Source: Thiohalobacter sp. (GTDB lineage: Bacteria > Pseudomonadota > Gammaproteobacteria > Thiohalobacterales > Thiohalobacteraceae). Taken from it: a DNA stretch of 64,000 nucleotides. Position numbers and translations under genes: made by a program. The stretch is taken from assembly GCF_027000115.1 (NCBI RefSeq), contig NZ_JALTON010000016.1, forward strand, positions 2,118 through 66,117, written 5' to 3'. Shown piece after piece: positions 3,376 through 29,484 of this stretch (the first letter of the stretch is position 1; each line of letters begins with the position of its first letter). The notes under the pieces were generated by a model. The model was not told the origin of the DNA. It saw only the letters and a list, made by a program, of their open reading frames with translations, and searched no databases.

Positions 3376-4053
3376 TCAGGCTGGCGCGCGCCCCCGCCGG
3401 GCCAGACCCATCAGGCCGACCAGCCCGGAACCGAACAGCCAGACGGCTGCGGGGACGGGCACGGGCGTGGCGTAGAAATCGAACGACACGTTGAGCCCCT
3501 GGAAGATGAAAGCATCCTGCACCGCACCACCCGGCTGCCCATCCCCATCCCAGTCGGTACTGGTATAAGTCGTGCACGAGTAGACCCACGGGAGATTGGC
3601 ACAACCGTAAGTAACATCCCAGACATTGACGACACCAAAGGGATAACTGATACCGCTGTCGCTCCAGTCAAACAACATGCCCCCGCCCACCTGGCCGGGT
3701 CCGACGGTAAAGGTATAGGCATAGGTTGCCGGCCCCGCATCCGATCCCGTACCGACATAGGTCCAGGTGTGGGTCCCCTCGCCAAACAGGGTCAAGGTCG
3801 CAGACATGTTGTTGTCGAGCAGAACCTGATCCCACACGCTCAGGTTGCCGGTCCCCAACAGTTCGTCTATTTCTCCGAACGTCGTCGCGCAGGGACCGCC
3901 GCCATCGGTGACGAAATTCTGCGTAGTTCCGGAGCTATCGATAAAACACAGACTCCCATCCAGTGCCAGCGGGGGGCGCACATTGAGCGCGAACACCTGC
4001 CCCGAACCCAGCAGGGCTGCGAGGCCCCACACCAAACACCGCTTTCTTCCCAT
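3376..4053 (-). CDS. secreted protein with exosortase-type C-terminal sorting tag (VPLPA/PEP-CTERM class)
   Basis: Start moved to the ATG at 4053, which has AAGGAG upstream. Signal peptide MGRKRCLVWGLAALLGSGQVFA. C-terminus TPVPVPAAVWLFGSGLVGLMGLARRGRAPA (motif + TM helix + Arg cluster). Confidence 0.8.
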   Translation of the reverse strand: MGRKRCLVWGLAALLGSGQVFALNVRPPLALDGSLCFIDSSGTTQNFVTDGGGPCATTFGEIDELLGTGNLSVWDQVLLDNNMSATLTLFGEGTHTWTYVGTGSDAGPATYAYTFTVGPGQVGGGMLFDWSDSGISYPFGVVNVWDVTYGCANLPWVYSCTTYTSTDWDGDGQPGGAVQDAFIFQGLNVSFDFYATPVPVPAAVWLFGSGLVGLMGLARRGRAPA

Positions 4054-4123
4054 GGTTACGCTCCTTGTTTTTCGAAAGGAAATCCGGCCCGCCTTTTCCA
4101 CGCCGGCGGGCCGGCAGACGTCC

Positions 4124-4717
4124 TCAGTGGCCCCGCCGGGCCAGACCCATCAGGCCGACCAGCCCGGAACCGAACAGCCAGACGGCCGCGGGCAGGGGCA
4201 CGAAGGCCTCCGGCGTCACCGCAACCGTCATCGAGAATCCAACCGTGGTCCCGCCAAAGGGGCCGCTCGCCTGCTCGCTGGTGAGAAAAACATCCCAGCT
4301 CGTGGCGCTGACCTGGGTCAGGGTTGCCGTGCCTCCCATGTAGAACTCCTCACCATTGAAGTTCCCATAGAGACCGCCAAAGTCCGCCGTCCCGTTGGCA
4401 AAATCCAGGCTCGGCAACGGATGGCTGCCGCCATCCACGCCGGTCTGCGCAAAATAGAAGTCGAGCGGATTGCCCAGGAAGCTCCCCTGCGCAAGACCGG
4501 CATAGGTCGCAGAGGCATCGGTCGCAATCGTCGCCGCGCTGCCGGTGAAGGCCTCGGGCAAGGGACCGTTGCCGGTCAGGCTGACGCCACCGCCAACCAC
4601 GTCAACAACCGAAAAGCTGCCGGAATCCACCCAGGTGAGGGCCGCCGCGCGGGCGAGGCCGGCTGTCGCCATCAGGGCGACGAAGGTCAGGGTACAAATC
4701 CAGTTTCTGCGGTTCAT
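4124..4717 (-). CDS. secreted protein with exosortase-type C-terminal sorting tag
   Basis: Start at the ATG at 4717, with GAGGAG upstream. Signal peptide MNRRNWICTLTFVALMATAGLARAAA. C-terminus FVPLPAAVWLFGSGLVGLMGLARRGH. Confidence 0.8.
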   Translation of the reverse strand: MNRRNWICTLTFVALMATAGLARAAALTWVDSGSFSVVDVVGGGVSLTGNGPLPEAFTGSAATIATDASATYAGLAQGSFLGNPLDFYFAQTGVDGGSHPLPSLDFANGTADFGGLYGNFNGEEFYMGGTATLTQVSATSWDVFLTSEQASGPFGGTTVGFSMTVAVTPEAFVPLPAAVWLFGSGLVGLMGLARRGH

Positions 4718-4867
4718 CCTTGTTTCTCCTCTGTCATGGTTATGGCAACGGGTTCCTCCGAACCACACGAACCCTTCGATCCGCGGCGGTCGCTGTCATT
4801 CGCACCGACAGACACCGACACAACCGGAGTCCGCCCTGCTCCCGGACGGAAACAGGGCGGACGCACC

Positions 4868-5773
4868 TCACTCGATCACCGCCGTGATACCCGGCAGCGG
4901 GTTGCCGGCGCCGTCCACCGCACGCACTTCCACCACCTGCAGGCCGCTGAGACCGCCGGCGACATAGAATTTGAAATCGTTCAGGTCCTGCAGGGGCTGC
5001 GTGCCGGCCGGCGTGAGCAGCACACGCAATCGCGTGCCGTCGTCGCGCCACAGCAGGCTCTTGAGGTCCCCCCTCGGGTTCACCACCCAGGCCCTGCCCT
5101 GCCCGCCGTTGTCCGCATCCGGATCGTGCAGGCATTCCACCTGAATGGCATGGGGCACGACCGATCCCGAAAAACGCACCGTGTAATGGGGCACCCGCGC
5201 CAGGCCGGCGAGCTGTTCGGGGGTCAGCGGCCCGTTGAGTTCGGCCTCGAAGTCCTCGGGCTGACCGGTGCCCGCAATCACCAGAAGCTCCGCCGTGACG
5301 GACTCGCCCGCCGGATTGCTGACCTCGACCCGGGTATTCCCGGCCGGCAGCCATGCGGGCAGATCCACGAACACCACCGTCTGCCACCAGTCGCCGTCAC
5401 CCCCGCTGAAACCCTCTTCGATCGCGGTACCATAGCTCCGGGCGGCGGGCGTCAGATCCTGGTCGATGCCGGCAGAGACGCGCAGGCTGGACAGGGGATC
5501 GGGATAGAGATTGAACACGGCGCGAATGGCCGGATCGCCCGGCGGGATCACCACCGGCGCACCGGCCGAGGGCGTAATGGTGACGGTGACCGTGTCCCGG
5601 GAAAAACCCAGCCGGCGGCCGGCGGCCAGGGTCACGGTGTCGCCGGCCCGGCTCACCGCCGGGTAGGTCTGAACGCCCGAACAGCCACCGAGTCCGGCAA
5701 GCGCCACCAATAAAAGCAACATGCCGACACACCGCGAGACACCCGCCATCATGTCCAGGCAACCCTTCATCAT
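4868..5773 (-). CDS. lipoprotein of unknown function
   Basis: 301 aa with lipobox LLLLVALAGLGGCSG. Its start overlaps the stop of the upstream S8 peptidase gene (ATGATGA overlap at 5768-5773). Confidence 0.6.
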   Translation of the reverse strand: MMKGCLDMMAGVSRCVGMLLLLVALAGLGGCSGVQTYPAVSRAGDTVTLAAGRRLGFSRDTVTVTITPSAGAPVVIPPGDPAIRAVFNLYPDPLSSLRVSAGIDQDLTPAARSYGTAIEEGFSGGDGDWWQTVVFVDLPAWLPAGNTRVEVSNPAGESVTAELLVIAGTGQPEDFEAELNGPLTPEQLAGLARVPHYTVRFSGSVVPHAIQVECLHDPDADNGGQGRAWVVNPRGDLKSLLWRDDGTRLRVLLTPAGTQPLQDLNDFKFYVAGGLSGLQVVEVRAVDGAGNPLPGITAVIE

Positions 5774-7905
5774 TGGCCCAACCTCTGCTGAATCAGTACC
5801 AGGTCCGACAGATCGATCACACCGTCCGGCGCGCCCGGAGGATAAAGATCGCCATGACTCAGATCCAGCGCAGCGGCCGCACGCTCGCCCAGCACCAGTT
5901 GCCGGGCCAGCAACAGGTCACCGGCATCCAGTACCCCGTCCGGGGCGCCCGGCGGCGCCAGATCGCCATCGGCATAATTGAACAGGAGCGGGACGGGATC
6001 GCTGCCGTCGGGAAGCCCGTCGCCATCGGTATCGCCAGACAGTGGATCCAGATCCGCCCCGGGGTTGTAGGCCGGATCCCCGTCCCATGCGAGCTCGGCC
6101 GCATCACTCAATCCGTCGCCATCAGTGTCGGCGAGCACCGGCGAGAGGTCCTGACCCGCCACATAGCCCGTCGCATCGCCATCGAAGGCCACCTCGAAGT
6201 AGTCGTCGAGGCCGTCTCCGTCGCTGTCCAGAACCAGCGGGTTGCTGCCAATGGCCAGCTCCAGCACATCGGACAGGCCGTCGTTGTCATCGTCCCCGTC
6301 ACAGGCATCGCCGGCGAGATCGCCGTCGGTATCGACCTGGGCGGCGTTGGCGATCAAGGGACAATTGTCGGTGTCGTGGTTCCAGCCATCGCCGTCGGCA
6401 TCCAGGCTGAGCCGCCCCTGACCGGTGCGGTAATCGAAACCCGCGCCGGCCACGTCCTCCGCCGTTGCCGTCAACTCGGCGCGCAGGCTGGCAACCGACC
6501 AGCCGGGATTACGGGCCAGCAGCAGGGCCGCGCCCCCGGCCACGTGGGGAGAAGCCGCCGAAGTGCCGGCAAAGCTGCCGCTGAGCGAGGTCTGCACCCG
6601 GTCGGTGCCCGCGATCTCCGGCTTGGCCCGGCCATCGGTGGTCGGCCCTTCCGAGCTGAAGCCTTCCGCCCCGTCGCTGAGGTTGACCGCGCCCACCGCG
6701 ATCACGCTCGCGCAATCGGCGGGCTGCACCAGGCTGCTGGCCTGGACACGGGTATCAAGGCTCGGCCCCAGGGAAAACAGGCTCAGCGGCACATCCGCCG
6801 TGCTGGCAGAGCGCTTGGTCACCACCAGGTAATAGGTCCCGGCGGTGGCGGCCGTGAAGTCGATGGCCTCGTAGGGGACACTGGAAGGCGTCCCCCGCTG
6901 CCGATTGGTCGAACTGGCCACCAGATTGCCGCCGGCATCGGGATCGCCGTCGTAAAGATGGAGATCGTAGTCGATGCCGGTAACCGGATAGGCATCCCAG
7001 TTCAGCACCAGAGTCACCGCCTGCCCCGCGTTGAGGCTGAGGCTGTTCCAGTTCTGGCCGGATGAAAACTCGTGACGGAGATCGCCGTCGGCATCACTGA
7101 ACTGGCCCAGCCAGTGCTTGGTGCGCGAGTTGCCGGCCGCGTTGACCCACAACGCACCGCCCTGTTCCGCCGTGTCCGTGATCCCGCACAATGGCCCGGT
7201 TCCGTCATAGAAGGCCGCGCCGTACCAGGCCACCGAGTGGTTGATGATCCGAACACCCGCGGCCAGCATGTCGTTCACCGCCTGACTCAGTTCCAGGTCG
7301 GTGCTGACCTTTGCCAGGTAGAACTGCGCACCCGGCGCCATGTCGTACAGGATTTCGGCCACCTGGGTTCCGTGAGTGGTGCCGCCGTTGCCCGTGCCCG
7401 TGTAGTCGGTGATGACCAGGTTGGCAGGCAGGTCGCCGGAGGCCTGCGATGCGGCCAGGCTGGCAAAACCGAGATCGATGACGCCAATCCTCACCCCGCC
7501 GCCATCGACACCCAGGGCGTGAAAATCGGCAGCACCCTGGATGGCCACCCCCTGACTGGTCACCGCCAGCGGCTCGTGGGGAAAGGGCAGGCGCACGCGG
7601 GTGTCCGGCGGCAGCACGGCCAGCAGGCGGGACAGGGCGCCGGCCGGGACCTCAAGCTGCCGGCTCCGCTCCGAGGAAAAGCGCAACCGCCCACCCTGCG
7701 CCTCGATCAAATTCCGCACCGACGCCGGCAGGACACCCCCCTCGAGAATGACCTTGACGCGGGCCGTCGCAGTCCGGGCATCCCCGGCCAACCGATCCAG
7801 CCTATGCGCGAGCCGCGCCTCGAGTTGGGCGGCGTGCGCGGATAAGGACGGCAGGAGCAAGGTACAGACCCCGAACAACAGCCATGCCGTGCGCCACCAT
7901 GCCAT
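5770..7905 (-). CDS. S8 (subtilisin) family serine peptidase with thrombospondin type-3-like Asp-rich repeats and a dockerin-like C-terminus
   Basis: Start taken at MAWWRTAWLLFGVCTLLLPSLSAHA (7905), because the upstream part of the ORF overlaps the neighbouring gene. Triad motifs: GVRIGVIDLGF, GGTTHGTQVAEI, GTSAASPHVAGGAALL. Followed by DADGDGWNHDTDNCP...DTDGDLAGDACDGDDDNDGLSD repeats and DLYPPGAPDGVIDLSDLVLIQQRL. Confidence 0.85.
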   Translation of the reverse strand: MAWWRTAWLLFGVCTLLLPSLSAHAAQLEARLAHRLDRLAGDARTATARVKVILEGGVLPASVRNLIEAQGGRLRFSSERSRQLEVPAGALSRLLAVLPPDTRVRLPFPHEPLAVTSQGVAIQGAADFHALGVDGGGVRIGVIDLGFASLAASQASGDLPANLVITDYTGTGNGGTTHGTQVAEILYDMAPGAQFYLAKVSTDLELSQAVNDMLAAGVRIINHSVAWYGAAFYDGTGPLCGITDTAEQGGALWVNAAGNSRTKHWLGQFSDADGDLRHEFSSGQNWNSLSLNAGQAVTLVLNWDAYPVTGIDYDLHLYDGDPDAGGNLVASSTNRQRGTPSSVPYEAIDFTAATAGTYYLVVTKRSASTADVPLSLFSLGPSLDTRVQASSLVQPADCASVIAVGAVNLSDGAEGFSSEGPTTDGRAKPEIAGTDRVQTSLSGSFAGTSAASPHVAGGAALLLARNPGWSVASLRAELTATAEDVAGAGFDYRTGQGRLSLDADGDGWNHDTDNCPLIANAAQVDTDGDLAGDACDGDDDNDGLSDVLELAIGSNPLVLDSDGDGLDDYFEVAFDGDATGYVAGQDLSPVLADTDGDGLSDAAELAWDGDPAYNPGADLDPLSGDTDGDGLPDGSDPVPLLFNYADGDLAPPGAPDGVLDAGDLLLARQLVLGERAAAALDLSHGDLYPPGAPDGVIDLSDLVLIQQRLGQ

Positions 7906-7915
7906 CCGCGCCCCC

Positions 7916-9019
7916 TCAGCCGCGGCGGCGCCTCGCCAGGCCAACCAGCCCCGCCAGGCCGGAGCCGAACAGCCAGACCGCCCCCGGAACCGGCACCGGC
8001 GCCACATAGGTCAGGCCATGCAGATTGTAGGCGCCCGTGGTCCTGAAGCGCGTGACCTCGGTGGCCGTATCGGCATCGATGACCGCGACGGCATCACGGC
8101 TCGTTGAAATGGCATCGTAGAAAATGCTGGTGTAGAGATAGCGGCCGTCGGCGCTGATGTCCAGGCCATGGGCACCGATCAGGCCATCAATGGCGGCATA
8201 GCTGACCCCGCCGGTCGTGAGATCATGGCCATGGACCGTGTTGCCGGCGGTACCCGACAGCCACAGGGTGCTGCCATCGGGATCGGCCACCAGTCCCATC
8301 GGCCCCATGCCGCCACCGCCGCCCATGTCGAAGGCACCGGTCGCGGCCAGCGTGGCCACATCGATGACCGATACGGTGTTGTCGTCGTAGTTGGTGACAT
8401 AGGCGGTACTGCCGTCGATGCTGAAGGTCGCCTGGATGGGGCGGCTGCCGACTGCGATATCGGTCTGCACCGCGCCGAGATTGGCGTCGAGCACGGACAC
8501 GACGTTGCGCGCCTCGTCCACCACCCACACCTGGCTGCCGTCCGGCGACACATCGACATCATGGGGGCCGTAGGCCTGACTGGGTCCGCCCCCGAAGTCA
8601 TAACTGGCGGCGATCGAGCCGTCGGTCGTGCTCATCTTGACGACCTGGTCGCTGGTGTTGTTGACCACGTACAGCCACTGGCCGTCGCCGCTGACCGCCA
8701 GATGCGTCGGGGCATAGCCGCCCGTGCCATAGGTGGCCACCAGGCTGTTGGTCAGGGCGTCGATCTTGGCGACCTGACCCGCATCCTTGAGCGTCGCCCA
8801 GACATAGCGGCGATCAGGACTGGCCACCAGGTTGTGCGGCGCGCTGGCCGCTCCCGTGGAAATGGTAGCGACCACCGTGTTGGTGTGGGCATCGATGACC
8901 ACGATATTGTCCGAACCGTCGCCGGCCACGAACACCTTGCCCACCGTGCTGGCCATGGCGGATACGGAAACGGCGGACAGCATGGCCACGCCGATACCGG
9001 CACAGATCCTGCGTTTCAT
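7916..9019 (-). CDS. YVTN-type beta-propeller repeat protein with exosortase-type C-terminal sorting tag
   Basis: Start at MKRRICAGIGVAMLSAVSVSAMA (9019). Repeated ...VVIDAHTNTVVATI / VAKIDALTNSLVATY / VSVLDANLGAV / VSVIDVATLAA blades. C-terminus APVPVPGAVWLFGSGLAGLVGLARRRRG. Confidence 0.85.
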   Translation of the reverse strand: MKRRICAGIGVAMLSAVSVSAMASTVGKVFVAGDGSDNIVVIDAHTNTVVATISTGAASAPHNLVASPDRRYVWATLKDAGQVAKIDALTNSLVATYGTGGYAPTHLAVSGDGQWLYVVNNTSDQVVKMSTTDGSIAASYDFGGGPSQAYGPHDVDVSPDGSQVWVVDEARNVVSVLDANLGAVQTDIAVGSRPIQATFSIDGSTAYVTNYDDNTVSVIDVATLAATGAFDMGGGGGMGPMGLVADPDGSTLWLSGTAGNTVHGHDLTTGGVSYAAIDGLIGAHGLDISADGRYLYTSIFYDAISTSRDAVAVIDADTATEVTRFRTTGAYNLHGLTYVAPVPVPGAVWLFGSGLAGLVGLARRRRG

Positions 9020-9160
9020 ATCTGAATCCTCCTCCACCGAAGTGAAATACCCGGTCGTCCTTCGGCCGCAGCGGGGACGGGACAGCCTCGCCCGGATACA
9101 AAACAGGGCGAAGGAAATACCCCTTCGCCCTGCCCGCAAGCGGAACTCAGGCGCCCCGGA

Positions 9161-10525
9161 TCACACGCGCGCCCGCCGGCGCCGCGCCACGCCCAGGAGC
9201 CCCACCAGGCCCGAGCCGAACAGCCAGACGGCCGCGGGCACCGGCACGGCGCTCAGGTCGGCGATCGCGACCAGGTTGCCGTTTTCGTCATAGTTGTAGG
9301 CGACCCCGTTGGCATCCGTGTTGGGCACATTGCTCAGATCGGAATAGACGCTGTAGTCCATGGCGTCGATCACGCGGATGCCGTCGGCGCGCATGATGAA
9401 GGCAAACCCCGGGAAAGAAGCATTCTGCCAGCTTCCACCCGCGGCCTCGCAACTGGTGCGGTCGGTGTAATCCAGCAACGATGAGAACTTGTACACACCC
9501 TCACCGCGCTGACCCGCCGCCCATTCGGCCGTCAGCACCCCGCACTTGCCTGCCACCGAAAGCACGTCGGCGCCATGGAAGGACACCAGGTTGTAGAAAT
9601 TGGCATCGGTCGGCGCCGTGCCACTGGCCAGCCCGGCCGCGACGGCATCCACGTCGTTCGGATTGGTATTGTTGACCACCGCGCGGGAACTGAATTGCTG
9701 CACATACCCTCCCGCCCCAGGGCTCACATTCACCGTGAACTCACCAAAGCTGGTCATCTTGAAGCCGCGCACGATCTCGGTGCTGAAGTAGGTATACTGG
9801 CCAGTGGTGAAGTTATAGGAGTAGACATCGAAGGCGAAGTCGAAGGTGACCATGCCGCCCATGGCCTCCTGGGCGGCGGGATTGGATGCCATCACCGAAC
9901 CGCACCAGCCGATGGCATCCGACAGCGCATAGGGCTGAAAGGCCAGGCCCGTGTTGTAGGTACCGTCGGGCGGCGCGTTGGGATCGAGCACGCCATCGGC
10001 TCCCAGCTCCTGCTGATAGGATAAGACATCGTAGAACTGGAAGGTCATGTCCTCCTGGCGGACGAGGTAGTCCCCGTCATAGTCGATCCGCATGTTGTTG
10101 AAGGTCGACCCGGGCTTGGTGGTGTAGCCCCACTTGTAGAAGTTGACCTGGGTGTCCAGATTGGCGTCGGTGAAGGTGTTGCTAGGCGCCCCGAAGTCAC
10201 TGTACAGGGTCTGCGGCCCGTCCGGCGTGAGCCCGTCCGCAGCCCGCGTCACCACGTGCTGGATCTGGCTGATGCCGCCGGCCGGGTCGGCATTGTTGCC
10301 CTCCGCCGGACCGCCGAACCCGCCGTTCAGGGGCGCGGTGTCGTTGTAGGTCCGCCCGCCCGGGCCGACATAGCCCCAGTCATCGAAGGTGATGGTACCG
10401 GTCGCGTTGTAGGTCGCGGCGTCGATGTTCTTGACCCACTGCTGCGCCACCGCGGATTGGGAACCCACCAGCAGGGCGACCGAAACCGCCACTGCCGTTC
10501 TTGAGATTGCAACTGGGCGAGCCAT
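9161..10525 (-). CDS. secreted protein of unknown function with exosortase-type C-terminal sorting tag
   Basis: Start at the ATG at 10525, with GGAGGA upstream. Signal peptide MARPVAISRTAVAVSVALLVGSQSAVA. C-terminus AVPVPAAVWLFGSGLVGLLGVARRRRARV. Confidence 0.8.
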   Translation of the reverse strand: MARPVAISRTAVAVSVALLVGSQSAVAQQWVKNIDAATYNATGTITFDDWGYVGPGGRTYNDTAPLNGGFGGPAEGNNADPAGGISQIQHVVTRAADGLTPDGPQTLYSDFGAPSNTFTDANLDTQVNFYKWGYTTKPGSTFNNMRIDYDGDYLVRQEDMTFQFYDVLSYQQELGADGVLDPNAPPDGTYNTGLAFQPYALSDAIGWCGSVMASNPAAQEAMGGMVTFDFAFDVYSYNFTTGQYTYFSTEIVRGFKMTSFGEFTVNVSPGAGGYVQQFSSRAVVNNTNPNDVDAVAAGLASGTAPTDANFYNLVSFHGADVLSVAGKCGVLTAEWAAGQRGEGVYKFSSLLDYTDRTSCEAAGGSWQNASFPGFAFIMRADGIRVIDAMDYSVYSDLSNVPNTDANGVAYNYDENGNLVAIADLSAVPVPAAVWLFGSGLVGLLGVARRRRARV

Positions 10526-10934
10526 GACTCCTCCTGAATAGTGTGTCTGTTGTGTTATGACTGCAATCGGGTTTCTTGCCATCCCGCCTTGATGCGGGCG
10601 CCAGCCCCTTAGCGACCGCCTGTGTCTTGTCGTTGTTTTTCCCTGTCGTCCGGTTTTCCGGGCGACAGCCGAGCAGCCCGGTACGCCGCACGCGACCACC
10701 CACCCCGCGCGAACTTCGGGCATTTCTTGTGCCCACAGGCAAGCAAGTTTTGATCCAGCATGCCCGCGGTTGCACCCCCTCCCGGATCTTTTTGCTGTAG
10801 AGTCCGCGACTTGCAACAAGAAAGCCCAAATCCCGGACACCGGCGACAAGGGACCCGGATGCCTGGATGTCAGGTCATCCGACACCCCGAAAACCGGCCG
10901 CAAGGCATCAACCCACTGTTGCAAAATGGTTTTT

Positions 10935-10986
10935 CAGCATGCATGCATGGCGTAAACAAAACCGACAGTTGCCGACATGCATGCTG
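10935..10986. promoter_or_regulatory. perfect 11-bp inverted repeat (CAGCATGCATG-N30-CATGCATGCTG) in the divergent intergenic region upstream of the YcaO gene
   Basis: Read directly: arms at 10935-10945 and 10976-10986. Lies 56 nt upstream of the 11042 start. The regulatory function is only a guess. Confidence 0.25.
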
Positions 10987-11041
10987 GTCGCGTGGCGGGT
11001 ATCATGGATAACCCGCTTGCAAATATGCAACACGAGATACC

Positions 11042-12673
11042 ATGTCTTCGTCTTCCGGCACAGCGCCTTTCGAACGACTGGGCAAGGCCTGCGTGCGTTT
11101 CCGCCTGAACCGGACCTACGTCACGGATGGCCGTTTCCTGTTCGTGCCGCCGGACGCCACCGACTTCTGTCCGCTCTGTTTCGAACGCCGCCACCGCGCC
11201 CAGTTTCCTGCCGCACCGGAACTGCACAGCCTCCCACCAGCCGCCCTCGAGCTGGCCAGACAATTCGACAAGGCCGCCAGGCACACGGACGAGTGGGTCG
11301 CCCAGGCACTGAAACCCGGCGCCGCCCGACAGAACTTCCGCCTGTTCGGATTCGAGGACTGCCCCCGCTGCCAGCCGCCACAAGCTGCCCTTTCACCGGC
11401 CGAGGCCGCCGAATACTACGAACTCAAACTCACCGGCCCCTCACCCGATTTCAACCCGGAAAACCTTTCCCGGCGTGTTTTCTCCTTCGGCTTTGCGCAC
11501 CGGGCAATGATGATGAACCGGTCCCGCCTGGACGACCCCCGCCTGACGAACCTCATCGCGGACGGTCATCATGCCCGGGTTCTGTACCGCATGGTGGTGC
11601 CGGACGGCCGTTTCACGGATGCCGCGACCACGGGTTACGACACCGACCCGGCACACGCGAGCCTCAAGGCGCTGATGGAGTACGCGGAGCGCTACGCCTT
11701 CAACCTCCATGTCACACCCGCCCGCGCCGAGCGGGCCGATCCGGAGCTGATCGACGGCTACATGCAACTCTACCGGCGCCCGCTTTCGGCGGCGGAAAAA
11801 AAACAGGCCGAGAACGAGGCCGTCTGGGGAGTCGACCTGTTGCGCGGTACACCCCGCGCCATCCCCCTGCCGTTCCTGTTCAGCTACCAGGCTTTCCGTG
11901 ACGTCAAGCCGACCAGCAGCGGTTATGGCGCCCACGGCAGCTTCGGGGATGCCGTGGCGTCCGGTATTGTGGAACTCGTCGAAAGGGATGCCTTCGTACG
12001 CTTCTGGCACGATCCGGGTCGTGCCCGTCTTCTGGAACTGCCACCGCCACAGGAACAGGCACTGACGTCGGTCGCGGCAGCCACTGCCGCCGCCGCCACC
12101 ATACCACCTCTCACCTCCCGGGCCTTCCTCATTCCCTCGCCCCTGCGGATCCCCGTGGTCCTGCTGGCCATATCCAGCGACCACCCGGAGCAGGGCCCTG
12201 CCCTGTTGTTCGGTTTCGGGGCGGGCTTGACCCTGGACGAGGCAGCGTACGGCGCACTGCGGGAACTCCGCCTGAATGCCATGAACCTGGTCCGTGCCCT
12301 GAAAATGATGCCGGACCTGCTGACGCAACACCCTCCGGCCAAGGTGGACGGTATTGCGCAACGCATGCAGCTCTACGCCTCGGCCGTCCCGCGCCCGCAT
12401 CTGCGCTTCCTCGACGAAGCCGATATGGCCCAGGCGGATGACTGCACGAGCTGCCCGCCTGATCTCGATGCCCTGCTCGACCGTTTCCGGAATGCGGAAA
12501 TCGACATCCACGCCGTTGACTGCACGCCGGAATGCCTGGCCGATCTCGGTGTGCATGTGGTCCGCGCCTTCTCGACCGGACTCTATCCGCTACAGTTCGA
12601 GCGCGAGGATACACTGAGCTTACCTCGAAGCGATGGGTACGCGGGAAAACACCTCTCACACTTCTTCCTGTAG
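11042..12673 (+). CDS. stand-alone YcaO-domain protein (ATP-dependent backbone amide-activating enzyme family)
   Basis: 543 aa. YcaO-like core: ...DPAHASLKALMEYAERYAF...SSGYGAHGSFGDAVASGIVELVERDAFVRFWH...GFGAGLTLDEAAYGALREL. The N-terminal region has CPLC and CPRC pairs. Confidence 0.8.
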   Translation: MSSSSGTAPFERLGKACVRFRLNRTYVTDGRFLFVPPDATDFCPLCFERRHRAQFPAAPELHSLPPAALELARQFDKAARHTDEWVAQALKPGAARQNFRLFGFEDCPRCQPPQAALSPAEAAEYYELKLTGPSPDFNPENLSRRVFSFGFAHRAMMMNRSRLDDPRLTNLIADGHHARVLYRMVVPDGRFTDAATTGYDTDPAHASLKALMEYAERYAFNLHVTPARAERADPELIDGYMQLYRRPLSAAEKKQAENEAVWGVDLLRGTPRAIPLPFLFSYQAFRDVKPTSSGYGAHGSFGDAVASGIVELVERDAFVRFWHDPGRARLLELPPPQEQALTSVAAATAAAATIPPLTSRAFLIPSPLRIPVVLLAISSDHPEQGPALLFGFGAGLTLDEAAYGALRELRLNAMNLVRALKMMPDLLTQHPPAKVDGIAQRMQLYASAVPRPHLRFLDEADMAQADDCTSCPPDLDALLDRFRNAEIDIHAVDCTPECLADLGVHVVRAFSTGLYPLQFEREDTLSLPRSDGYAGKHLSHFFL

Positions 12674-12895: not shown

Positions 12896-14011
12896 ATGCT
12901 GTCACCAGAAAGAAATTTCATGCTATCCGGAGGTGCCCTGAAAACCGCGCTTGCCTCGGAGCTGGACGGCCTAAGAAGGGCTGCAAAACGCCCTGATTAC
13001 CGCTCAAATCTGGCTTTGTTGGAAACGTACATCGATGACATGGACAGTGTCGCTCAGGGAGCACCCTTCTCCCGACTCGATGGCATGCCAAGAAACACCC
13101 GTATCATCGACTTTCCTAAGGCGCAGCCCAAGATCAAGTCGCGCCTGTTTTTTTCACATATCGCCGCCTGTATCGTTCTTCTGGAACACCACACTCTTAG
13201 CCCAGAGGAACTACGAGTGGGCATAACAAATCACAAGGCCAATCAAATACTGGACTTGGCAGAACGAAACCCGGAAGTCCGTCGCAACCTGATGCAAAGA
13301 CTCACGGGCATGGATGCTGTTCGAACCAACATGCTCCTGCGGGCCTTGGGCCTCATTACCCGAAAGCCTTCAGCAATACGTCAATTGGGTCTTGGCGTGG
13401 CGAGCGGGGCCAAGGATATCCGTTTTTTTCATTTGTACCCGATACTGGCACGGCAAGCCACCTCCGAGGACCATTACCTGTACACGCTGAACACCATTCA
13501 TCAGGCTGCGCACGACATTGTCATCAATGACCTAGACCCTCGACATGAGGCCGCATTCAAGAATTACGAAAAACTAGGAAGCCCCGCCGTCAAAGGCTAC
13601 ATCTGTGATACGCAAGAGGCCCTCGTAAGACTGGCGGAAGACGATATACCCAAGAGAAACCTGGTAACCATGCTGCGCATGGAACCTGCCATGATAAGAG
13701 ACAGCCGCGAGTTTCTCCGGCACTTATCAAGAACCATCGAGCGTGACTGTGATTTCGTTTTTACGATAGGATCCGGCGACAATCCCGATGCTTACAGGCA
13801 CCGCGTTCGTCGCATCAGCGACCTGTTCGAGAAATTCGATGCAGCGGGCCTCGACCCGGTCCTCATTCGGCTTCACAAAGGCGGCACCATCATGCAACAA
13901 GCGCGCTCCCTCCAGTTCGGCAGTGGCGCTGCCGCAAGCTATGAAATACTGTACTGCCGGCTTGACCCAGAGAAGTTGACGGAATTACTAGTCCGCGACC
14001 AGAAGAAATGA
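12896..14011 (+). CDS. hypothetical protein (no family recognised), lower-GC gene
   Basis: 371-aa ORF in the low-GC insert with coherent codon usage. No motifs recognised. The start is uncertain (alternative Met at 12923). Confidence 0.5.
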   Translation: MLSPERNFMLSGGALKTALASELDGLRRAAKRPDYRSNLALLETYIDDMDSVAQGAPFSRLDGMPRNTRIIDFPKAQPKIKSRLFFSHIAACIVLLEHHTLSPEELRVGITNHKANQILDLAERNPEVRRNLMQRLTGMDAVRTNMLLRALGLITRKPSAIRQLGLGVASGAKDIRFFHLYPILARQATSEDHYLYTLNTIHQAAHDIVINDLDPRHEAAFKNYEKLGSPAVKGYICDTQEALVRLAEDDIPKRNLVTMLRMEPAMIRDSREFLRHLSRTIERDCDFVFTIGSGDNPDAYRHRVRRISDLFEKFDAAGLDPVLIRLHKGGTIMQQARSLQFGSGAAASYEILYCRLDPEKLTELLVRDQKK

Positions 14012-14067: not shown

Positions 14068-15930
14068 ATGACCAACAAGCCGATCAGCCACAAGTCGATC
14101 CTTGAACTTATTAACAAAGGCAAACCTCAAAAGGCACTACATCAATGCGAGACTCTGCTACGTCGCTCGAAACATGATCCGAATCTCCATATCATGGCGG
14201 GTTCCCTGAACGCCCAACTGGGCGCATTCTCTGCGGCAATCGACCATTTTCTCGAGGCCAACAGACATCAGCCAAACAACCCCAATACGATCAATAGCCT
14301 GGGAATGGCTTATGCTGCCGACGGGCAGTTCCAGGACGCCGAAACCTGGTTCAGAAAAGCGCTGGAACTTCAGCCCGGGAAACCGGAGATCATGAAAAAC
14401 CTCGCATTCACGCTGGTCAAGCAAGGAAAAACCGGCGAGGCGGAAGCGTTACTGAAGGAAACACTGAAGCTCGCGCCCAACTCGGCAGACGCGCTGCAGC
14501 TTCTGGGTGACATACAACTCGCAGAACGGCTCTATGCGCTGGCCATCGACTCCTACAGTCGCGCCCTGAATTTATACCCAACGCGCCCCCAGCTTCTTTT
14601 ACAGCGCGCAAAGGCACAAATGCTTGCCGGGAAGATCGGCCCGGCGATAGTTGATCTCAAGAAAGCCACTGATATCGACCCCAATTACGCTCAGGCTTAC
14701 ATCACTCTGGGCCACGCCTACATTTCCAACGGGGACCCTGATAATGCGCGCCAGGCATTCGAGAAAGCACTGAACACCCAACCGAATAACCTCGACGCGC
14801 TCCTTGGTATCATCACGCTAGATGAACGCGCAGGAAATCTCGATGCGGCATTCCGAAACCTCCTCCCCCTCACGAAAACCATCAAAAACAATTTGGAACT
14901 GGGCGACATATACGTCCGTCTATGCCACCATTTCGACGCGTGCGAGAAAGCCATCGAATATGCACTCCAAGCTCTGGCTCAGCATGAAGACCTACCCAAA
15001 ATGAAAGGCCAACTCCACTTTTCCCTTGGCCGACACTTTGACCGAATCGGAAATTATGATGCCGCGTTCGAACACTACCAGAGCGCGAACTCGCTCCGCC
15101 CTCAGAACTATGACCCGGAAGAGCACGCCAACCTGGTCAATTCACTGATCACCATATTCAGCCAGGACTTCATTGCATCCGCGCCACGCTCGACCCTATC
15201 CTCGCAGAAGCCTGTATTCGTAGTGGGAATGCCGCGAAGCGGGACGACTCTCACTGAACAGATTCTAGCGAGCCACCCTGATATTTATGGAGTCGGAGAA
15301 CTTACTGATATCGGAGACTTGATCCAATCGATCGCCGTCCTCGGAAAATCCGGCCTAGAGTACCCTTTCAGCCTAAAAGATATTACCAACGAGATCCTGG
15401 ACTTCATCGCCAACAATTACCTTGCGCGACTGCATGAAGTGGCGCCCGACGCGCCGCGGGTTATCGACAAATACCCGGGAAACTACCTGCATCTGGGATT
15501 GATCGCGCTCGCATTTCCTGGCGCCCGGGTCATTCACTGCCGTCGCGACCCACGCGACACCTGCCTGTCCATATACTTCCAGGACTTCAGCGAACAGTTC
15601 CAGTATGCGAACAACCTTGAACACGCGGGACTACATTACAGGCAGTACAACAAACTCATGGAACACTACCGACAGACTCTCGATATCCCAATACTGGAAG
15701 TGTATTATGAGAAGTTGGTAACCAGCCCGGAGCCAACGATCCGAGAAATGATCGAGTTCCTGGAATTGGAATGGAACGACAGTTGCCTGGAGTTCCACAA
15801 AACCCAGCGATTTATAGCGACCCCAAGTTATGACCAAGTCCGCAAACCACTCTACTCGGATTCCATCGGACGTTGGGAGCATTACGAGAAATACATTTCA
15901 CCGTTACTGAATGCGTTGAACATGAAGTAA
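14068..15930 (+). CDS. TPR repeat-containing sulfotransferase (paralog 1, lower-GC copy)
   Basis: 620 aa. N-terminal TPR array. C-terminal PAPS-binding motifs: PVFVVGMPRSGTTLTEQILASHP (5-prime PSB), IHCRRDPRDTCLSIYFQDF, TPSYDQVRKPLYSDSIGRWEHY. Confidence 0.85.
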   Translation: MTNKPISHKSILELINKGKPQKALHQCETLLRRSKHDPNLHIMAGSLNAQLGAFSAAIDHFLEANRHQPNNPNTINSLGMAYAADGQFQDAETWFRKALELQPGKPEIMKNLAFTLVKQGKTGEAEALLKETLKLAPNSADALQLLGDIQLAERLYALAIDSYSRALNLYPTRPQLLLQRAKAQMLAGKIGPAIVDLKKATDIDPNYAQAYITLGHAYISNGDPDNARQAFEKALNTQPNNLDALLGIITLDERAGNLDAAFRNLLPLTKTIKNNLELGDIYVRLCHHFDACEKAIEYALQALAQHEDLPKMKGQLHFSLGRHFDRIGNYDAAFEHYQSANSLRPQNYDPEEHANLVNSLITIFSQDFIASAPRSTLSSQKPVFVVGMPRSGTTLTEQILASHPDIYGVGELTDIGDLIQSIAVLGKSGLEYPFSLKDITNEILDFIANNYLARLHEVAPDAPRVIDKYPGNYLHLGLIALAFPGARVIHCRRDPRDTCLSIYFQDFSEQFQYANNLEHAGLHYRQYNKLMEHYRQTLDIPILEVYYEKLVTSPEPTIREMIEFLELEWNDSCLEFHKTQRFIATPSYDQVRKPLYSDSIGRWEHYEKYISPLLNALNMK

Positions 15931-16061: not shown

Positions 16062-17060
16062 CTAGCCGCCTTTCAATTGCTGACTACTTACATAGGCAAT
16101 CGCCTCATCAATACGCCCGGCATCAAAATCGGACAAATCCGGATCCTCAGCCAACATGTTGAGCAGTTTCAGACAGCCTTCCCGAAGACCCACCACATGA
16201 CTAAACTTGGCAAGCACCAAGGCAGCCTCCACATGCGGTCTTTGTCGCTCCAATGATGGCTTGATGAGCTCGAACGCCTTCTGCAAATCACCTTGCGCAT
16301 AAAACACGTCGGCCCGCTGAATCCGATACTTCTCATTATCCGAGTCCCGCGCCAAGGCCTTTTCAATGGCCATCAATGCCTCTTCGTTCAGCCCCCAGGC
16401 AACAAATACTTTCGAGGCGAAATACTGGATTTCCGCAATATCCACTCGCGATACGATATCTTTAAGCAGCAGGACACCGTCATCATCCAAATCCTTTTGC
16501 TGCAGACAAAGACACCAGCCGATGATCAAGCTCTCATCACGGTTGCCCAGCACCAGCGCCTTGCGGTAAGCATCTTCGGCGGAAGCAACATCGCCGGTCC
16601 TGGCATAAAGATACCCCAGGTAACCCCACACATCCGGCTGACCATCATCAAGCGCGACCGCCCGCCTAAAGGCCTCCAGCGCCTCCTCCTCGCGCCCCGA
16701 TCTCAGCAATGCTTCCCCATGGGCACAGACTGCCCCGATATCCTCCGCATCAAGCTCCACGGCTTTGGAAAAGTGTTCCACGGCCTCGGCCAGATTACCA
16801 AGGGCCGAGCTAATCTGCCCAAGCACCATATACAAATCGGGATTATTTGGATCCAGACTTCTGGATTTCTCGATAAAATTCATCCCATCGGATACATGAC
16901 CCAGCTCGACCGCCAGTGACCCGCGCATCAACCAGGCCTCGGCGCAGTCAGGAACATCCTCGGTAATCTTCTGGTAGGCATTCAGGGCACCTGGCAGATC
17001 ACCCTGATCGCATAAAGTCGATGCTTCCGCGAGCTTCGTCGCCAAATCGATCATAACCAA
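16062..17060 (-). CDS. TPR repeat protein
   Basis: 332 aa of consecutive 34-residue TPR-like units (...AEAWLMRGSLAVELGH..., ...PDLYMVLGQISSALGNLAEAVEHFSKAVELD...). Confidence 0.8.
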   Translation of the reverse strand: MVMIDLATKLAEASTLCDQGDLPGALNAYQKITEDVPDCAEAWLMRGSLAVELGHVSDGMNFIEKSRSLDPNNPDLYMVLGQISSALGNLAEAVEHFSKAVELDAEDIGAVCAHGEALLRSGREEEALEAFRRAVALDDGQPDVWGYLGYLYARTGDVASAEDAYRKALVLGNRDESLIIGWCLCLQQKDLDDDGVLLLKDIVSRVDIAEIQYFASKVFVAWGLNEEALMAIEKALARDSDNEKYRIQRADVFYAQGDLQKAFELIKPSLERQRPHVEAALVLAKFSHVVGLREGCLKLLNMLAEDPDLSDFDAGRIDEAIAYVSSQQLKGG

Positions 17061-17379: not shown

Positions 17380-18042
17380 CTATATGTCCAGGGAAAAGTT
17401 CTCTTTCTCAATCTTTGTCAGATACCAGCCAGTTATCGACAACCGTTTGTGGGGGGTCTCGCACCGCACCGCTTCAACCCAGTGGTGGCTGCTTGGCCGC
17501 ACATTAAACAATACCAGTTTATTGAAAGATGGGGTAATGACCATCCGCGGCGACTTCCAAACCAAGTTACCACCCCAGGCCGCCTCCCAGTCGGTCGACA
17601 AGTAGTAATTGAATGTAAGCGCCCGCCTGTAAACGTTCTCGCCATCAGTGAATACATGGTCATCATTATGCTCACTGATGCCGTCGCCCTGGTGAAACAC
17701 TGCCGCCGAGCCAATGAAGCGATCGAGCTTCTGCCCACTCGCGTATGAAAACCACTCGCGCGTTTCCGGCGCCATCAAATAGCGGAACAAGGACTTTAGG
17801 GCAGCAGGCGCATCTTCGCTGGCAATATTGATGCTGTCCCTAGTGACCTCGAACCGCCCCGGCTGGTACCCGAGCTTCCCCCAGGTACTCCCGTCTTCTC
17901 GAACCCACTCCCCACTCTTCAACAATTCCGACTGCAACTCTTTCGCAACTTCCGCATCAAGAGCATCCTCGAGCACAACAACCGGCCCTTTAAGTTTCTC
18001 CTTCAGATCCTCCCTGGAAGACAGCACTTCATTACTGAGCAT
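17380..18042 (-). CDS. 2OG-Fe(II) oxygenase superfamily protein (prolyl/lysyl hydroxylase-like)
   Basis: 220 aa. HxD in ISEHNDDH, distal His in RPSSHHWVEAV, RxS in KRLSITGWY. This is the classic 2-His-1-carboxylate plus 2OG-binding Arg arrangement. Confidence 0.72.
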   Translation of the reverse strand: MLSNEVLSSREDLKEKLKGPVVVLEDALDAEVAKELQSELLKSGEWVREDGSTWGKLGYQPGRFEVTRDSINIASEDAPAALKSLFRYLMAPETREWFSYASGQKLDRFIGSAAVFHQGDGISEHNDDHVFTDGENVYRRALTFNYYLSTDWEAAWGGNLVWKSPRMVITPSFNKLVLFNVRPSSHHWVEAVRCETPHKRLSITGWYLTKIEKENFSLDI

Positions 18043-18967
18043 GGCTAGTGGAGCACCCTGTAAACGACCTCAGCACAAGCGGGACTGCCCGCAAACCGAT
18101 ACCGACTGACTACAGCAGACTGGCATACCCGATCCTATCATAAAAACCACACCTTTTCGGACGCTGCGCCGCATCCAAACATCACATCCTGTTCCACAGG
18201 GCCGCCGCATGATATTGACTGGAGAAGCCCGGCACTTCATTGATCTTGGAGCGCGATCCAGCGGTCCCGAAACCAGTCTGGATATTCAACGAGGCCACCC
18301 CGCTACCCTCACCGGGCACTGCGGATGGTCGCGGATTGTCGCTCGGGCTTCGGGGACTTCACTCAAGCCGCCGCGGCGGCTACGGCTCGAGTGCCAGCAC
18401 CAGGGTACCCGAATAGCGAGTGAGCGGAATCCGGGGCTACACCATGCCCGCACGCCCGGGCTCCTGACGCACTATGCGGCCAGACCACACCTTATATAAT
18501 ACAACCCGCCAGTTCGGAGGATTGTCTGTCGATAATCCTTACGACCCGCAACCGCCACCAAGACAGCGATGCGCCACCCACTAACCTATTGTAGAGAAAG
18601 CTGGAAACCATGATCTGCGCTCGACGTCCAACATCTCGCCGGCCGAAAAGAACCTGCTGACACCCGCCACAAATGTCGACATACTTGACATTGACCTTTG
18701 GCAATGAACGACGCACAAGCTCGCCACCCAGCCCCGATCCCCGACATATATCTTCGTTTTCAAAGGGATAAAGTGGGGCGCCATCATTCTCTCCTAAAAC
18801 TGGCCCGCTACTTGCATCGTGTTCAGGCGCTTGCGCCCCCCGCCAGATCTTCCGAGATTGCATTACGGCGCGGAGGGGCCTTCGCAAAACCGATGAAACG
18901 CTCCGGTATCCTGCTTCCGCGGTTCCGGAGAAACAAAACTTGAGGAAACTTGCGAGGAGTTACCATC

Positions 18968-19537
18968 ATGATGAAAAAGACCATTCTGGCTGGCGCGATT
19001 GCTGCTGCCATGGGCACCTCCGCTGCCAACGCTGCCGTAACCTCCATCAGCATCACCCAGATGGTGTTCGGAAACACGTATGCTGCGACCGGCTCCATCG
19101 ACATTGCCAATGGTTCCGGCGTGTTCACCTCGGTCGATCCCTTCTACAGCAACCACTGGACTGCGACCGTGCAGACGGTGTTCAGCAGCAGCGGCACCTG
19201 GGCCGGCACCTCGCCGCAGGGCGCCTTCAGCTACCAGTTCACCGTGGACACCACCGCTGGTGACGTGGCTGCCGTCGGCACCTACTTCGACTGGGCCACC
19301 AACCTCGGTATTCCGGTCCTGACCGTGTTCAATTGTGGCGCCGGCAACGTCGGTGATGCCTGCACCGGCCTGAGCCTCCCCATGGCTACGCTGCCTTTCC
19401 CCGGCCAGCAGCCCACTTTCAACGGTGTGGTTGCCGCTGCCAGCAGCCCGGTCCCGGTTCCGGCAGCCGTCTGGCTGATGGGATCCGGCCTGGTCGGCCT
19501 GGTGGGCGTGGCACGCCGCCGCCGTCGCGCTGCCTGA
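18968..19537 (+). CDS. small secreted protein with exosortase-type C-terminal sorting tag; N-terminal domain paralogous to 31307..32719
   Basis: Start at the ATG at 18968, 8 nt after GAGGAG. Signal peptide MMKKTILAGAIAAAMGTSAANA. C-terminus SPVPVPAAVWLMGSGLVGLVGVARRRRRAA. Confidence 0.85.
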   Translation: MMKKTILAGAIAAAMGTSAANAAVTSISITQMVFGNTYAATGSIDIANGSGVFTSVDPFYSNHWTATVQTVFSSSGTWAGTSPQGAFSYQFTVDTTAGDVAAVGTYFDWATNLGIPVLTVFNCGAGNVGDACTGLSLPMATLPFPGQQPTFNGVVAAASSPVPVPAAVWLMGSGLVGLVGVARRRRRAA

Positions 19538-25274: not shown

Positions 25275-25584
25275 GCTGCCCCCGCCGCCGGCGCTTTGCA
25301 GCTCCCAGCCATCCCGTACCCGACTTCGAGCACCAGTGCCCGGCCCGGGTCGCGCAGTGGAACGTCCGGACCGGTTCCAGAACGGTATCGGGCGACGCGC
25401 GAAAAGTTGCCAGCGCGTCCGGGCAGCGGAATAATGGGCCTGCCCCCCCTCTGCCGGCGGGCACCACGGATGGCGACGGGTCTGCGCCCGGGCGGGAGAC
25501 AGAACCTCTGGCAGGTCGGCCACCGATGGCGCTGCCTGCCGCTGTTTTCATGAACACCTGACATAACGAGAAGACGAACCTACC

Positions 25585-28590: not shown

Positions 28591-29484
28591 ATGAACGACT
28601 CGAATGCAGTCCACGCGCTGCGCGCCAATCCTGCCACCTGGATTTCCATCCTCGCCATGGGCGGGTTGCTGACGGCGCTGAGCCTGGTGCCGGACCCGCT
28701 CGCCCTGGCGCGCGACTATGGCCAGTTCCTCGCCCTCGGGCTGGCCGGGGCCATCGCCGCCAATTCGACCGGGGCGGGCGGCGGCATCGTCTTCATCCCC
28801 GCGTTCACCTCGCTGGGCATCGGCGGCGAAAACGCGCTCGCCACCAGCCTGGCCATCCAGTGCTTCGGCATGACTGCCGGCAGCATCGCCTGGCTGGTGG
28901 CCCTGAAACGCCATGAATACGGGGGCCGCCACGCGGTCTCGCTGGTGCGCAGGCTGTTGCTGATCACCGCGCCCCCGGCGGCAGCGGGCATGCTGCTCGC
29001 GCAGTATCTGGTTCCGGCCCCGCCGCTGGCAGTGGCGACCATCTTCAAGTATTTCTCCATCCTGTTCGGCCTGCTGCTCCTGTACGGCACGCTGCGCAAG
29101 CCGCAGCCGCACCCGCACGCCATCCACCGGCTCCACCGGCGCCATGTCGTGCCCATCGTCGTCTGCGCCCTGGCCGGTGGCATGGTCACGGCCTGGATCT
29201 CGATCGGCGTCGGCGAGTGGCTGGCCCTGCTGCTTTTCTTTCTGGGCTACCCCACGATGATTTCGGTCTGCATCGCCGTGTGCATCTCCGCGCTCACAGT
29301 GTGGGTCGGCATCGGTTATCATGCCGGTACCGATGGCCACATCGTCTGGCCCATCGTGCTCTTCGCCGCGCCGGCGGCCATGGTCGGCGGCAGCGTCGCG
29401 CGTTACCTTGCCCGCCGGCTCGGACCCGTTCGTCTCAAGATCTTCTTCAGTACCTGGATTCTTGCGACCGGCCTCGTGATGTAG
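28591..29484 (+). CDS. TauE/SafE (DUF81) family anion permease, sulfite-exporter-like
   Basis: 297 aa and polytopic. Gly-rich motif NSTGAGGGIVFIPAFTSLGI is typical of the family. Confidence 0.7.
   Translation: MNDSNAVHALRANPATWISILAMGGLLTALSLVPDPLALARDYGQFLALGLAGAIAANSTGAGGGIVFIPAFTSLGIGGENALATSLAIQCFGMTAGSIAWLVALKRHEYGGRHAVSLVRRLLLITAPPAAAGMLLAQYLVPAPPLAVATIFKYFSILFGLLLLYGTLRKPQPHPHAIHRLHRRHVVPIVVCALAGGMVTAWISIGVGEWLALLLFFLGYPTMISVCIAVCISALTVWVGIGYHAGTDGHIVWPIVLFAAPAAMVGGSVARYLARRLGPVRLKIFFSTWILATGLVM

Follow-up and report, generated by a model that had tools for sequence, protein, structure and literature searches.

A YcaO protein with an N-terminal two-CxxC domain in an island of TPR-fused tailoring enzymes of Thiohalobacter sp.

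YcaO enzymes are best known from small antibiotics of the RiPP type (peptides made on the ribosome and modified after translation), and to our knowledge the only proteins known as their substrates are archaeal McrA and, since 2026, bacterial uL16. In E. coli YcaO the YcaO domain is N-terminal and an extra domain follows at the C terminus. In the fused cyanobactin-type heterocyclases (TruD, PatD and LynD; PDB 4BS9, 4V1T-V), a part of the C domain with two CxxC motifs stands before a C-terminal YcaO domain, and this order is also found in the protein described here. It is the 543-aa product of an open reading frame (ORF) with an ATG start at positions 11042-12673 (+) of a stretch of 64,000 nucleotides from Thiohalobacter sp. 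(assembly GCF_027000115.1, contig NZ_JALTON010000016.1, positions 2,118 to 66,117 of the forward strand; this whole stretch is here referred to as the window). We tentatively read this YcaO, a member of a rare clade, as an ATP-dependent activator of backbone amides that forms one module of an island of enzymes fused to tetratricopeptide repeats (TPR) and acts on a gene-encoded protein; this is the reading we prefer, and we give it not quite an even chance.

With TruD, PatD and LynD the window protein shares the ATP/Mg motifs and a homologous zinc segment, its C-terminal tail is PHxF-like, and LynD is its top structural match. However, it is about 200-240 residues shorter, has no RiPP recognition element (RRE, domain 1), and the Rossmann-like part of domain 2 is mostly missing. 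Those systems are RRE-dependent. No precursor, protease or macrocyclase gene was found near the window YcaO gene, and a long, well-supported branch sets its clade apart. The SagD/BalhD/McbD-type D proteins are the nearest family in sequence, with catalytic motifs in common and a variant of their tail, but neither a separate C/F partner (the three ThiF-family matches are on other contigs), a SagB dehydrogenase nor a precursor was found in the Thiohalobacter genome. The YcaOs of E. coli (acting on uL16; PMC13063428) and of archaea (acting on McrA) are stand-alone enzymes working on a full-length folded protein, and provide a precedent for a protein substrate without TfuA. In contrast to the E. 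coli enzyme, the window protein carries its zinc domain ahead of the YcaO domain and has no match to TIGR00702 (E. coli-type YcaO) at E <= 0.01. Moreover, E. coli YcaO groups with >1,200 YcaO proteins (PMC13063428), while the window clade is rare and patchy.

The YcaO domain (PF02624) is the sole Pfam domain of the protein, matching at 134.1 bits (E 9e-39; cut-off 25.7) from residue 198 to 514 and covering positions 2-324 of the 325 in the profile, and the gene is the single YcaO gene of its assembly (2.65 Mb, 63 contigs, 100% complete). From 5.8 billion protein clusters we obtained 15 full-length relatives, all about 540 aa long and 35-42% identical. In the resulting alignment of 16 sequences, M-E213-Y-x-E216-R217-Y-A, E311-L-x-E314-R315-D316-A and E408 are unchanged, the FSFGF motif (147-151) is invariant, and the same holds for C43, C46, C107 and C110 of the two N-terminal CxxC pairs (CPLC, 43-46; CPRC, 107-110). 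At the level of motifs, alignment pairs the two acidic helices (ExxER and ExxERD) with the ATP/Mg motifs in MJ1094, MusD, LynD and TruD. The initial annotation of this DNA, made from the letters alone, had recognised a YcaO core around IVELVERDAF (residues 309-318) and the two CxxC pairs, and both were borne out; it had also considered an inactive homologue, and the Glu/Arg motifs for ATP binding proved intact. From the intact frame and motifs, the enzyme is predicted to be catalytically competent. An AlphaFold2 model built from the 16-sequence alignment has a mean predicted local distance difference test score of 84 and a predicted template modelling score of 0.88. When this full model was compared with the PDB by Foldseek, LynD was the best match (E 1.2e-17), and MusD, the YcaOs of M. 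kandleri and M. jannaschii, TruD, E. coli YcaO and McbD were also found, with E. coli YcaO ranking below LynD, MusD and the archaeal proteins. A profile search of the PDB placed the thioamide-forming MJ1094 first, at 37 bits.

The N-terminal domain was modelled alone, and residues 5-110 gave a confident compact fold of four beta-strands, two helices and a beta-hairpin. One CxxC lies where the first helix starts, the other behind the hairpin. For residues 112-195 only the full-length model is confident, and there they pack against the YcaO domain. A Foldseek search of the isolated domain model against the PDB gave no significant fold match (best E 0.04), with scattered matches to NEDD8-E1 (UBA3) at probability <0.1; no RRE-like fold was found. 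The idea of an RRE or a complete E1 fold, to which the initial annotation had proposed to compare the region, was dropped because neither had a significant structural match. In every long fused C-D cyclodehydratase of the outgroup the N-terminal half holds a pair of CxxC motifs with a spacing of 65-90 residues, and this pair falls inside the region of TIGR03882 ("TOMM precursor leader peptide-binding protein", TOMM standing for thiazole/oxazole-modified microcin). An hhalign comparison of the N-terminal domain (22 clade members) with the zinc segments of 11 fused cyclodehydratases covered 109 columns at a probability of 93% (E 3.3e-7) and brought both CxxC pairs into line; residues ~13-123 of the window protein make up the matching segment. 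As a control, the same templates were reversed, which keeps composition and Cys spacing, and gave E 0.031. Against the whole N-terminal halves of the fused enzymes the zinc segment alone aligned, and against the MoeB-like protein of the same genome only the second knuckle did (E 0.028). TIGR03882 itself was undetected in the window protein by HMMER. A two-CxxC segment of this kind carries structural zinc in domain 2 of TruD and in MccB, and is common to MccB and a class of E1-like adenylating enzymes (PMC3995012). By sequence, the window protein is thus best described as a putative minimal C-D fusion, which kept the partner's zinc sub-domain but lost domain 1 (the RRE) along with the bulk of the Rossmann-like part. 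Since the N-terminal CxxC region appears to be a remnant of the E1-like partner, the word "orphan" in the initial annotation is overstated and right in part only, namely in that no separate partner gene exists nearby. Its picture of a self-sufficient YcaO with a zinc region in the role of the partner likewise held for the homology of that region to the C/E1-like domain, but the RRE that binds leader peptides is gone, and substrate recognition by the zinc region is a conjecture.

As to family placement, the nearest outgroup YcaOs match the azoline-type model TIGR03604 (SagD family) at 213-280 bits, and the closest of them pass its cut-off. A profile search of 1.84 billion representative proteins retrieved just 31 at E < 1e-30, which split into a core group around the window protein and a sister group of 560-605 aa that retains both CxxC pairs; below these 31, matches span the YcaO domain alone, and those scanned were SagD-type. 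In a maximum-likelihood tree of 145 YcaO domains, the core and sister groups form one clade on a long stem (Shimodaira-Hasegawa-like approximate likelihood ratio test 99), and the window protein branches deep within the core group. The exact C-terminus is (P/S)HFF[LIT] in the core group (SHFFL in the window protein), PHCFP or PHLFT in the sister group and PHPF[PL] in the SagD-type outgroup, of which some members end in PHFFL or PHCFP. BalhD-type enzymes need a PxPxP motif to cyclodehydrate, and we take this proline-rich tail to be that motif, as a lead and not as a test. The clade has its origin in TOMM-type (SagD-like) cyclodehydratases and is tiny, with about 35 representatives among the 1.84 billion proteins. 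Searches of 40 relatives, 21 of them genomes of the same family, and, with the profile of the N-terminal domain, of 400 genomes sampled evenly across the class did not find it. In a pattern scan over 185,579 GTDB species representatives, the YcaOs that came up were all distant, at 21-37% identity. The gene is a rare accessory gene. The isoelectric point (pI) ranges from 5.1 to 8.8 across the clade and is 4.4 in E. coli YcaO (PMC13063428); charge complementarity was dropped as a clue to the substrate because the clade values were uninformative.

We then compared the gene neighbourhoods of 12 independent core-clade contexts (the window, L001, L003, L004, L006-L009, L065, L066, L068 and L074), which are largely metagenome contigs and whose counts are not adjusted for kinship. 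TPR-fused tailoring enzymes lie within 10 kb of YcaO in 10 of the 12. They comprise sulfotransferases (8 contexts), GT41 glycosyltransferases, class-I or FkbM-type methyltransferases, 2-oxoglutarate (2OG) or PhyH oxygenases and a halogenase, and a TPR-sulfotransferase directly adjoins YcaO in L066, L068 and L074. Moreover, P0021 (702 aa) joins TPR (residues 11-148), zinc domain and YcaO in one chain, a Rosetta-stone fusion that is full length in two assemblies (P0021/P0210; ENA and JGI) on contigs of less than 4 kb. The genome of the window has 14 Sulfotransfer_3 matches on three contigs: four on C16 (this island), nine on C61 and one on C21. Those of C61 form a looser run of ~28 kb (34.5-63 kb), 8-37 kb from one of the two exosortase genes of the genome (C61:26041), and that of C21 (45.7 kb) is ~3 kb from the other (C21:49285), which suggests that sulfation is tied to exosortase/exopolysaccharide (EPS) systems. 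Because the sulfotransferases are confined to three contigs, chance adjacency to YcaO is unlikely. Other genes also recur among the loci: five have a lipoprotein of ~290-300 aa, four a FadL-like channel and four a TauE-family transporter. Family searches confirmed the CTERM cargo genes and TPR-linked tailoring enzymes that the initial annotation had seen beside the window gene, and no classical RiPP partners stood next to the homologues in any context retrieved.

The usual partners are missing. As had been noted from the letters, Pfam and NCBIfam searches found no separate gene for an E1-like/ThiF protein, TfuA or a nitroreductase-type dehydrogenase within 10 kb of YcaO. Genome-wide, TfuA (PF07812) has no match in this 100%-complete assembly, the best match to the SagB-type dehydrogenase model TIGR03605 reaches 20.5 bits (cut-off 78.4) on another contig, and ThiF-family matches number just three, all outside this contig; an ORF of 254 aa among them carries CYRC/CDVC zinc motifs and is taken to be MoeB-like. 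No leader peptidase/ABC exporter pair or immunity gene was found near YcaO. An ORF at 12686-12886 was considered as a precursor and rejected, as it has no counterpart in any homologous locus.

Candidate substrates were sought among the secreted proteins encoded nearby. One family, here referred to as S1, is found near YcaO in 8 of the 12 loci (window, L001, L003, L006, L007, L008, L066 and L074), including the three where no complete TPR-fused enzyme gene is within reach (L003, L007 and L008). S1 proteins have a ~140-aa domain that holds a conserved Cys pair (FFDW..N.GIPVL..DC...C.G...PM...PF), together with a signal peptide and a C-terminal anchor that varies: often VPLPA-CTERM, otherwise choice-of-anchor U or a Big_9/cadherin-like extension. 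The genome has 14 VPLPA-CTERM matches, five of them in the window. In line with the second alternative of the initial annotation, by which nearby secreted proteins would be the substrates, we propose the co-located S1-domain and VPLPA-CTERM secreted proteins as the best substrate candidates.

We infer the enzymatic activity, the azoline chemistry, which protein is the substrate and that the TPR enzymes belong to one pathway with YcaO, and the target is probably a protein and not a classical small antibiotic peptide. In the mechanism that we propose, the zinc domain would stabilise or dock the enzyme, to which P0021 adds a TPR array. With ATP-Mg bound at its conserved Glu/Arg motifs, the YcaO domain would O-phosphorylate an amide in the backbone of a protein or long peptide that is encoded by a gene. 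Attack by the side chain of a neighbouring Cys, Ser or Thr would follow, most likely yielding an azoline. Because no dehydrogenase is present, the azoline would be left unoxidised. The same substrate would be sulfated, glycosylated, hydroxylated or halogenated by the cytoplasmic TPR-fused enzymes, and then be exported.

Several observations weigh against such a protein-modifying island. First, the best NCBIfam match of the window protein, again to TIGR03604, reaches 120.6 bits, below the curated cut-off of 219.25. Second, none of the small ORFs within 1.2 kb of YcaO (8 loci) or in all intergenic regions (12 loci) is conserved, and a Cys/Ser/Thr/Gly-rich tail is absent from all small ORFs examined in the 12 loci. 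Third, the association with TPR enzymes is not universal: L003, L007 and L008 have no complete gene of this kind within reach, in L007 (position 10001) the end of mfd (transcription-repair coupling factor) runs into the YcaO start codon, and the one context of the sister group (P0024, Candidatus Babeliales) is all housekeeping, with S41 peptidase, RapZ, DivIC, LysRS, RecJ and ThrRS. Synteny among the loci may also reflect common descent in part rather than function. Fourth, since the sulfotransferases cluster with exosortase/EPS loci, the TPR enzymes may act on polysaccharide, with YcaO merely a neighbour. Finally, we know of no Sec- or exosortase-exported protein that is a YcaO substrate.

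Some of these points favor another explanation, by which a stand-alone YcaO modifies a conserved cellular protein, ribosomal or other, by way of its folded structure, and its location in the island is hitch-hiking on an accessory region. E. coli YcaO thioamidates uL16 directly, reading its tertiary structure (PMC13063428), and a cellular target is therefore a serious rival. That enzyme needs no separate partner gene, and TfuA is missing here too; the window gene is the only YcaO of a genome without an E. coli-type YcaO, no precursor was found, the YcaO of L007 overlaps the mfd stop and that of L003 has no adjacent TPR enzyme. The housekeeping surroundings of P0024 point the same way: its gene (2898-4673 of contig L073) belongs to a lineage of reduced genomes, and this context hints at a conserved cellular substrate in the sister group. 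However, the absence of the clade from the 40 relatives and the 400 genomes of the class would be odd for a housekeeping modification, though it may fit a lineage-specific role. TPR-fused enzymes in 10 of 12 contexts and the existence of a TPR-YcaO fusion also argue against it, and the pI range shows no charge signature like that of E. coli YcaO, to whose type the window protein has no match. On balance, we consider a cellular target unlikely.

A further alternative keeps the island and the active enzyme but changes the chemistry: the enzyme would form a thioamide, with sulfur from sulfide or an unknown donor, form an amidine, or use ATP to cleave peptide bonds as MusD does. Thioamide-forming MJ1094 heads the PDB profile search, the ATP-dependent peptidase MusD is among the top fold matches, and no dehydrogenase is there to turn azolines into azoles. 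Thioamidation independent of TfuA exists (PMC13063428), and the TauE/SafE-family transporter in 4 of 12 loci, CysQ and the many sulfotransferases indicate heavy sulfur traffic. Against this stand the azoline-type best family match and nearest relatives, a C-terminal PHxF tail like that of SagD-type relatives, and a score of just 26.7 bits with TIGR03266 (the YcaO of McrA-glycine thioamidation; cut-off 365). For stand-alone amidine formation of the bottromycin or streptamidine type, no precursor was found. The chemistry of a YcaO cannot be assigned by sequence alone, and we regard these alternatives to azoline formation as quite unlikely.

Precursors of RiPPs often remain unannotated and are poorly conserved, so that a classical TOMM-like RiPP cyclodehydratase, whose short and fast-evolving precursor gene was missed or lies elsewhere, has to be weighed as well, the TPR enzymes then being RiPP tailoring enzymes or unrelated. 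Descent from SagD-type cyclodehydratases, with a variant of the C-terminal tail and the C-domain remnant retained, fits this account; halogenase, 2OG oxygenase and sulfotransferases could plausibly serve to tailor a RiPP, and Iyer et al. (2010) tied such neighbourhoods to peptide metabolites (PMC2938197). On the other hand, no small ORF is conserved over the 12 loci: the sole cross-locus matches reflect L003/L008 synteny, apart from one match of 13 residues (E 0.001; L003/L074). None of these ORFs is Cys/Ser/Thr/Gly-rich, and the rejected ORF after the YcaO gene is without counterpart. No NHLP precursor (in a search without positive control) and no Nif11 precursor was found in the genome, and RRE, dehydrogenase, leader peptidase/ABC exporter pair and immunity gene are all missing nearby. 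Such a RiPP pathway therefore seems distinctly improbable. That the protein is a decayed or non-catalytic homologue retained as a scaffold is very improbable: the window copy diverges most within the core group (35-42% identity) and has Ser in place of the near-invariant Pro of the C-terminal tail, but its frame is intact, the catalytic-motif columns and four zinc cysteines are invariant including this copy, and the fold prediction is confident.

The features of the island are collected in Table 1. A scan of the divergent region upstream of YcaO for consensus promoters and terminators gave nothing above background. The true start of the secreted-protein gene on the other side of this region is probably internal to its ORF. 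In the cargo operon, the S8 peptidase gene overlaps the start of the lipoprotein gene, and the pair (window 4868-8007) is kept in L006 (45-3009); L001 and L004 have the lipoprotein without the S8 peptidase, within their enzyme clusters. The YcaO stop is followed at once by a stretch of lower GC content (12675-18950; 0.53-0.58, flanks 0.63-0.71), with a GC content at third codon positions (GC3) of 0.56-0.66. It contains the 371-aa orphan, one TPR-sulfotransferase, the TPR-only protein and the 2OG oxygenase, and looks like a later insertion into the island. CysQ, found after the export genes, is a phosphatase for 3'-phosphoadenosine 5'-phosphate, and removes the by-product of sulfation dependent on 3'-phosphoadenosine 5'-phosphosulfate. 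In other loci, a ~210-aa protein with a SEC-C motif and a weak methyltransferase match stands beside 2OG oxygenases (L004 13919-14551 and L074 9969-10607), and L004 also has a SET-domain protein (14947-15471).

Table 1. Features of the window around the YcaO gene, in window positions.
Feature	Position	Strand	Evidence and remarks
Cargo operon	3376..9139	-	CTERM proteins, lipoprotein, S8 peptidase
CTERM proteins of cargo operon	3376-4101, 4124-4768, 7916-9139	-	motif and family scans
Lipoprotein of ~300 aa	4868-5773	-	no family match; family recurs in 5/12 YcaO loci
S8 peptidase with TSP3 repeats	5770-8007	-	recurs in L006
VPLPA/PEP-CTERM secreted protein, divergent from YcaO gene	9161..10924	-	C-terminal VPVPAAVWLFGSGLVGLLGVARRRR; weak PEP-CTERM/VPLPA-CTERM matches; motif scan
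Divergent intergenic region, CTERM-cargo operon/YcaO gene	10526..11041	.	promoter/terminator scan: nothing above background
N-terminal zinc-binding domain, putative remnant of E1-like C domain	11042..11377	+	residues 1-112; beta-beta-beta-beta-alpha-alpha-beta-beta
First CxxC, C43-P-L-C46	11168..11179	+	invariant 16/16; pairs with first CxxC of fused cyclodehydratases
Second CxxC, C107-P-R-C110	11360..11371	+	invariant 16/16; pairs with second CxxC (CPxC) of fused cyclodehydratases
Linker end and YcaO catalytic domain	11480..12670	+	residues 147-543; FSFGFA 147-152, M-E213-Y-x-E216-R217, E311-L-V-E314-R315-D316, E408, C-terminal SHFFL
371-aa orphan protein	12896..14011	+	no Pfam/NCBIfam match; no homologue in other loci; GC3 0.60, ~0.8-0.9 around
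TPR-sulfotransferase (paralog 1)	14068..15930	+	Sulfotransfer_3 148 bits + TPR; homologues in L001, L004, L009
TPR-only protein	16062..17060	-	homologue in L006
2OG-Fe(II) oxygenase	17380..18042	-	PF13640 56 bits; homologues in L001, L004, L006
S1 secreted domain protein, VPLPA-CTERM tail	18950..19537	+	TIGR03370 28.3 bits, above cut-off
Two tandem TPR-sulfotransferases	19606-21429, 21433-23394	+	domain and homologue searches
TPR-GT41 (OGT-like) glycosyltransferase	23382..25523	-	PF13844 173 bits + TPR
Flavin-dependent Trp-halogenase-like enzyme	25585..27165	+	PF04820 405 bits; homologue in L006
Sulfotransferase-domain protein	27218..28549	-	the island's fourth Sulfotransfer_3 match; nearest matches are TPR-sulfotransferases in other loci
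TauE/SafE-family anion transporter	28591..29484	+	PF01925 78 bits; also next to YcaO in L003, L008, L074
FadL/Toluene_X outer-membrane channel	29740..31230	+	recurs in L003, L007, L008
S1 secreted domain paralog, choice-of-anchor U domain	31307..32719	+	NF041766; 70% identical to 18950 protein over 147 aa
XrtA/PEP-CTERM-system EPS export genes	32859-39480		directly downstream; TIGR03027 export protein, TIGR03016 outer-membrane protein, TIGR03007 chain-length determinant, TIGR03018 tyrosine autokinase, TIGR03015 ATPase
CysQ	40101-40910		after EPS export genes

Neighbourhoods with the same palette, namely TPR-fused 2OG oxygenases, halogenase, sulfotransferases and methyltransferases, were described in bacteria and phages by Iyer et al. 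(2010; PMC2938197), who predicted co-encoded secreted Gly-rich proteins as the substrates. YcaO is not mentioned in that paper, and the window island adds to the palette a backbone-activating enzyme, as we read it, which is TPR-fused in one member. We found no description in the literature of an association of YcaO with TPR, sulfotransferase or PEP-CTERM. A wider hypothesis, which we consider doubtful, is that YcaO backbone chemistry (azoline or thioamide) on full-length exported proteins is a plug-in of a TPR-docked toolkit for sulfation, glycosylation, halogenation, hydroxylation and methylation, which would act on exosortase-sorted or other surface proteins in the cytoplasm before export, with the zinc N-domain or, in some members, a fused TPR docking in place of the RRE. 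A third and unrelated protein-acting clade, without a leader-binding RRE, would broaden the range of backbone modifications on proteins and would offer a handle on the targets of the TPR-enzyme islands in many bacteria. The putative minimal C-D architecture would also be useful to enzyme engineering, as it would show how little of the C domain a YcaO must keep.

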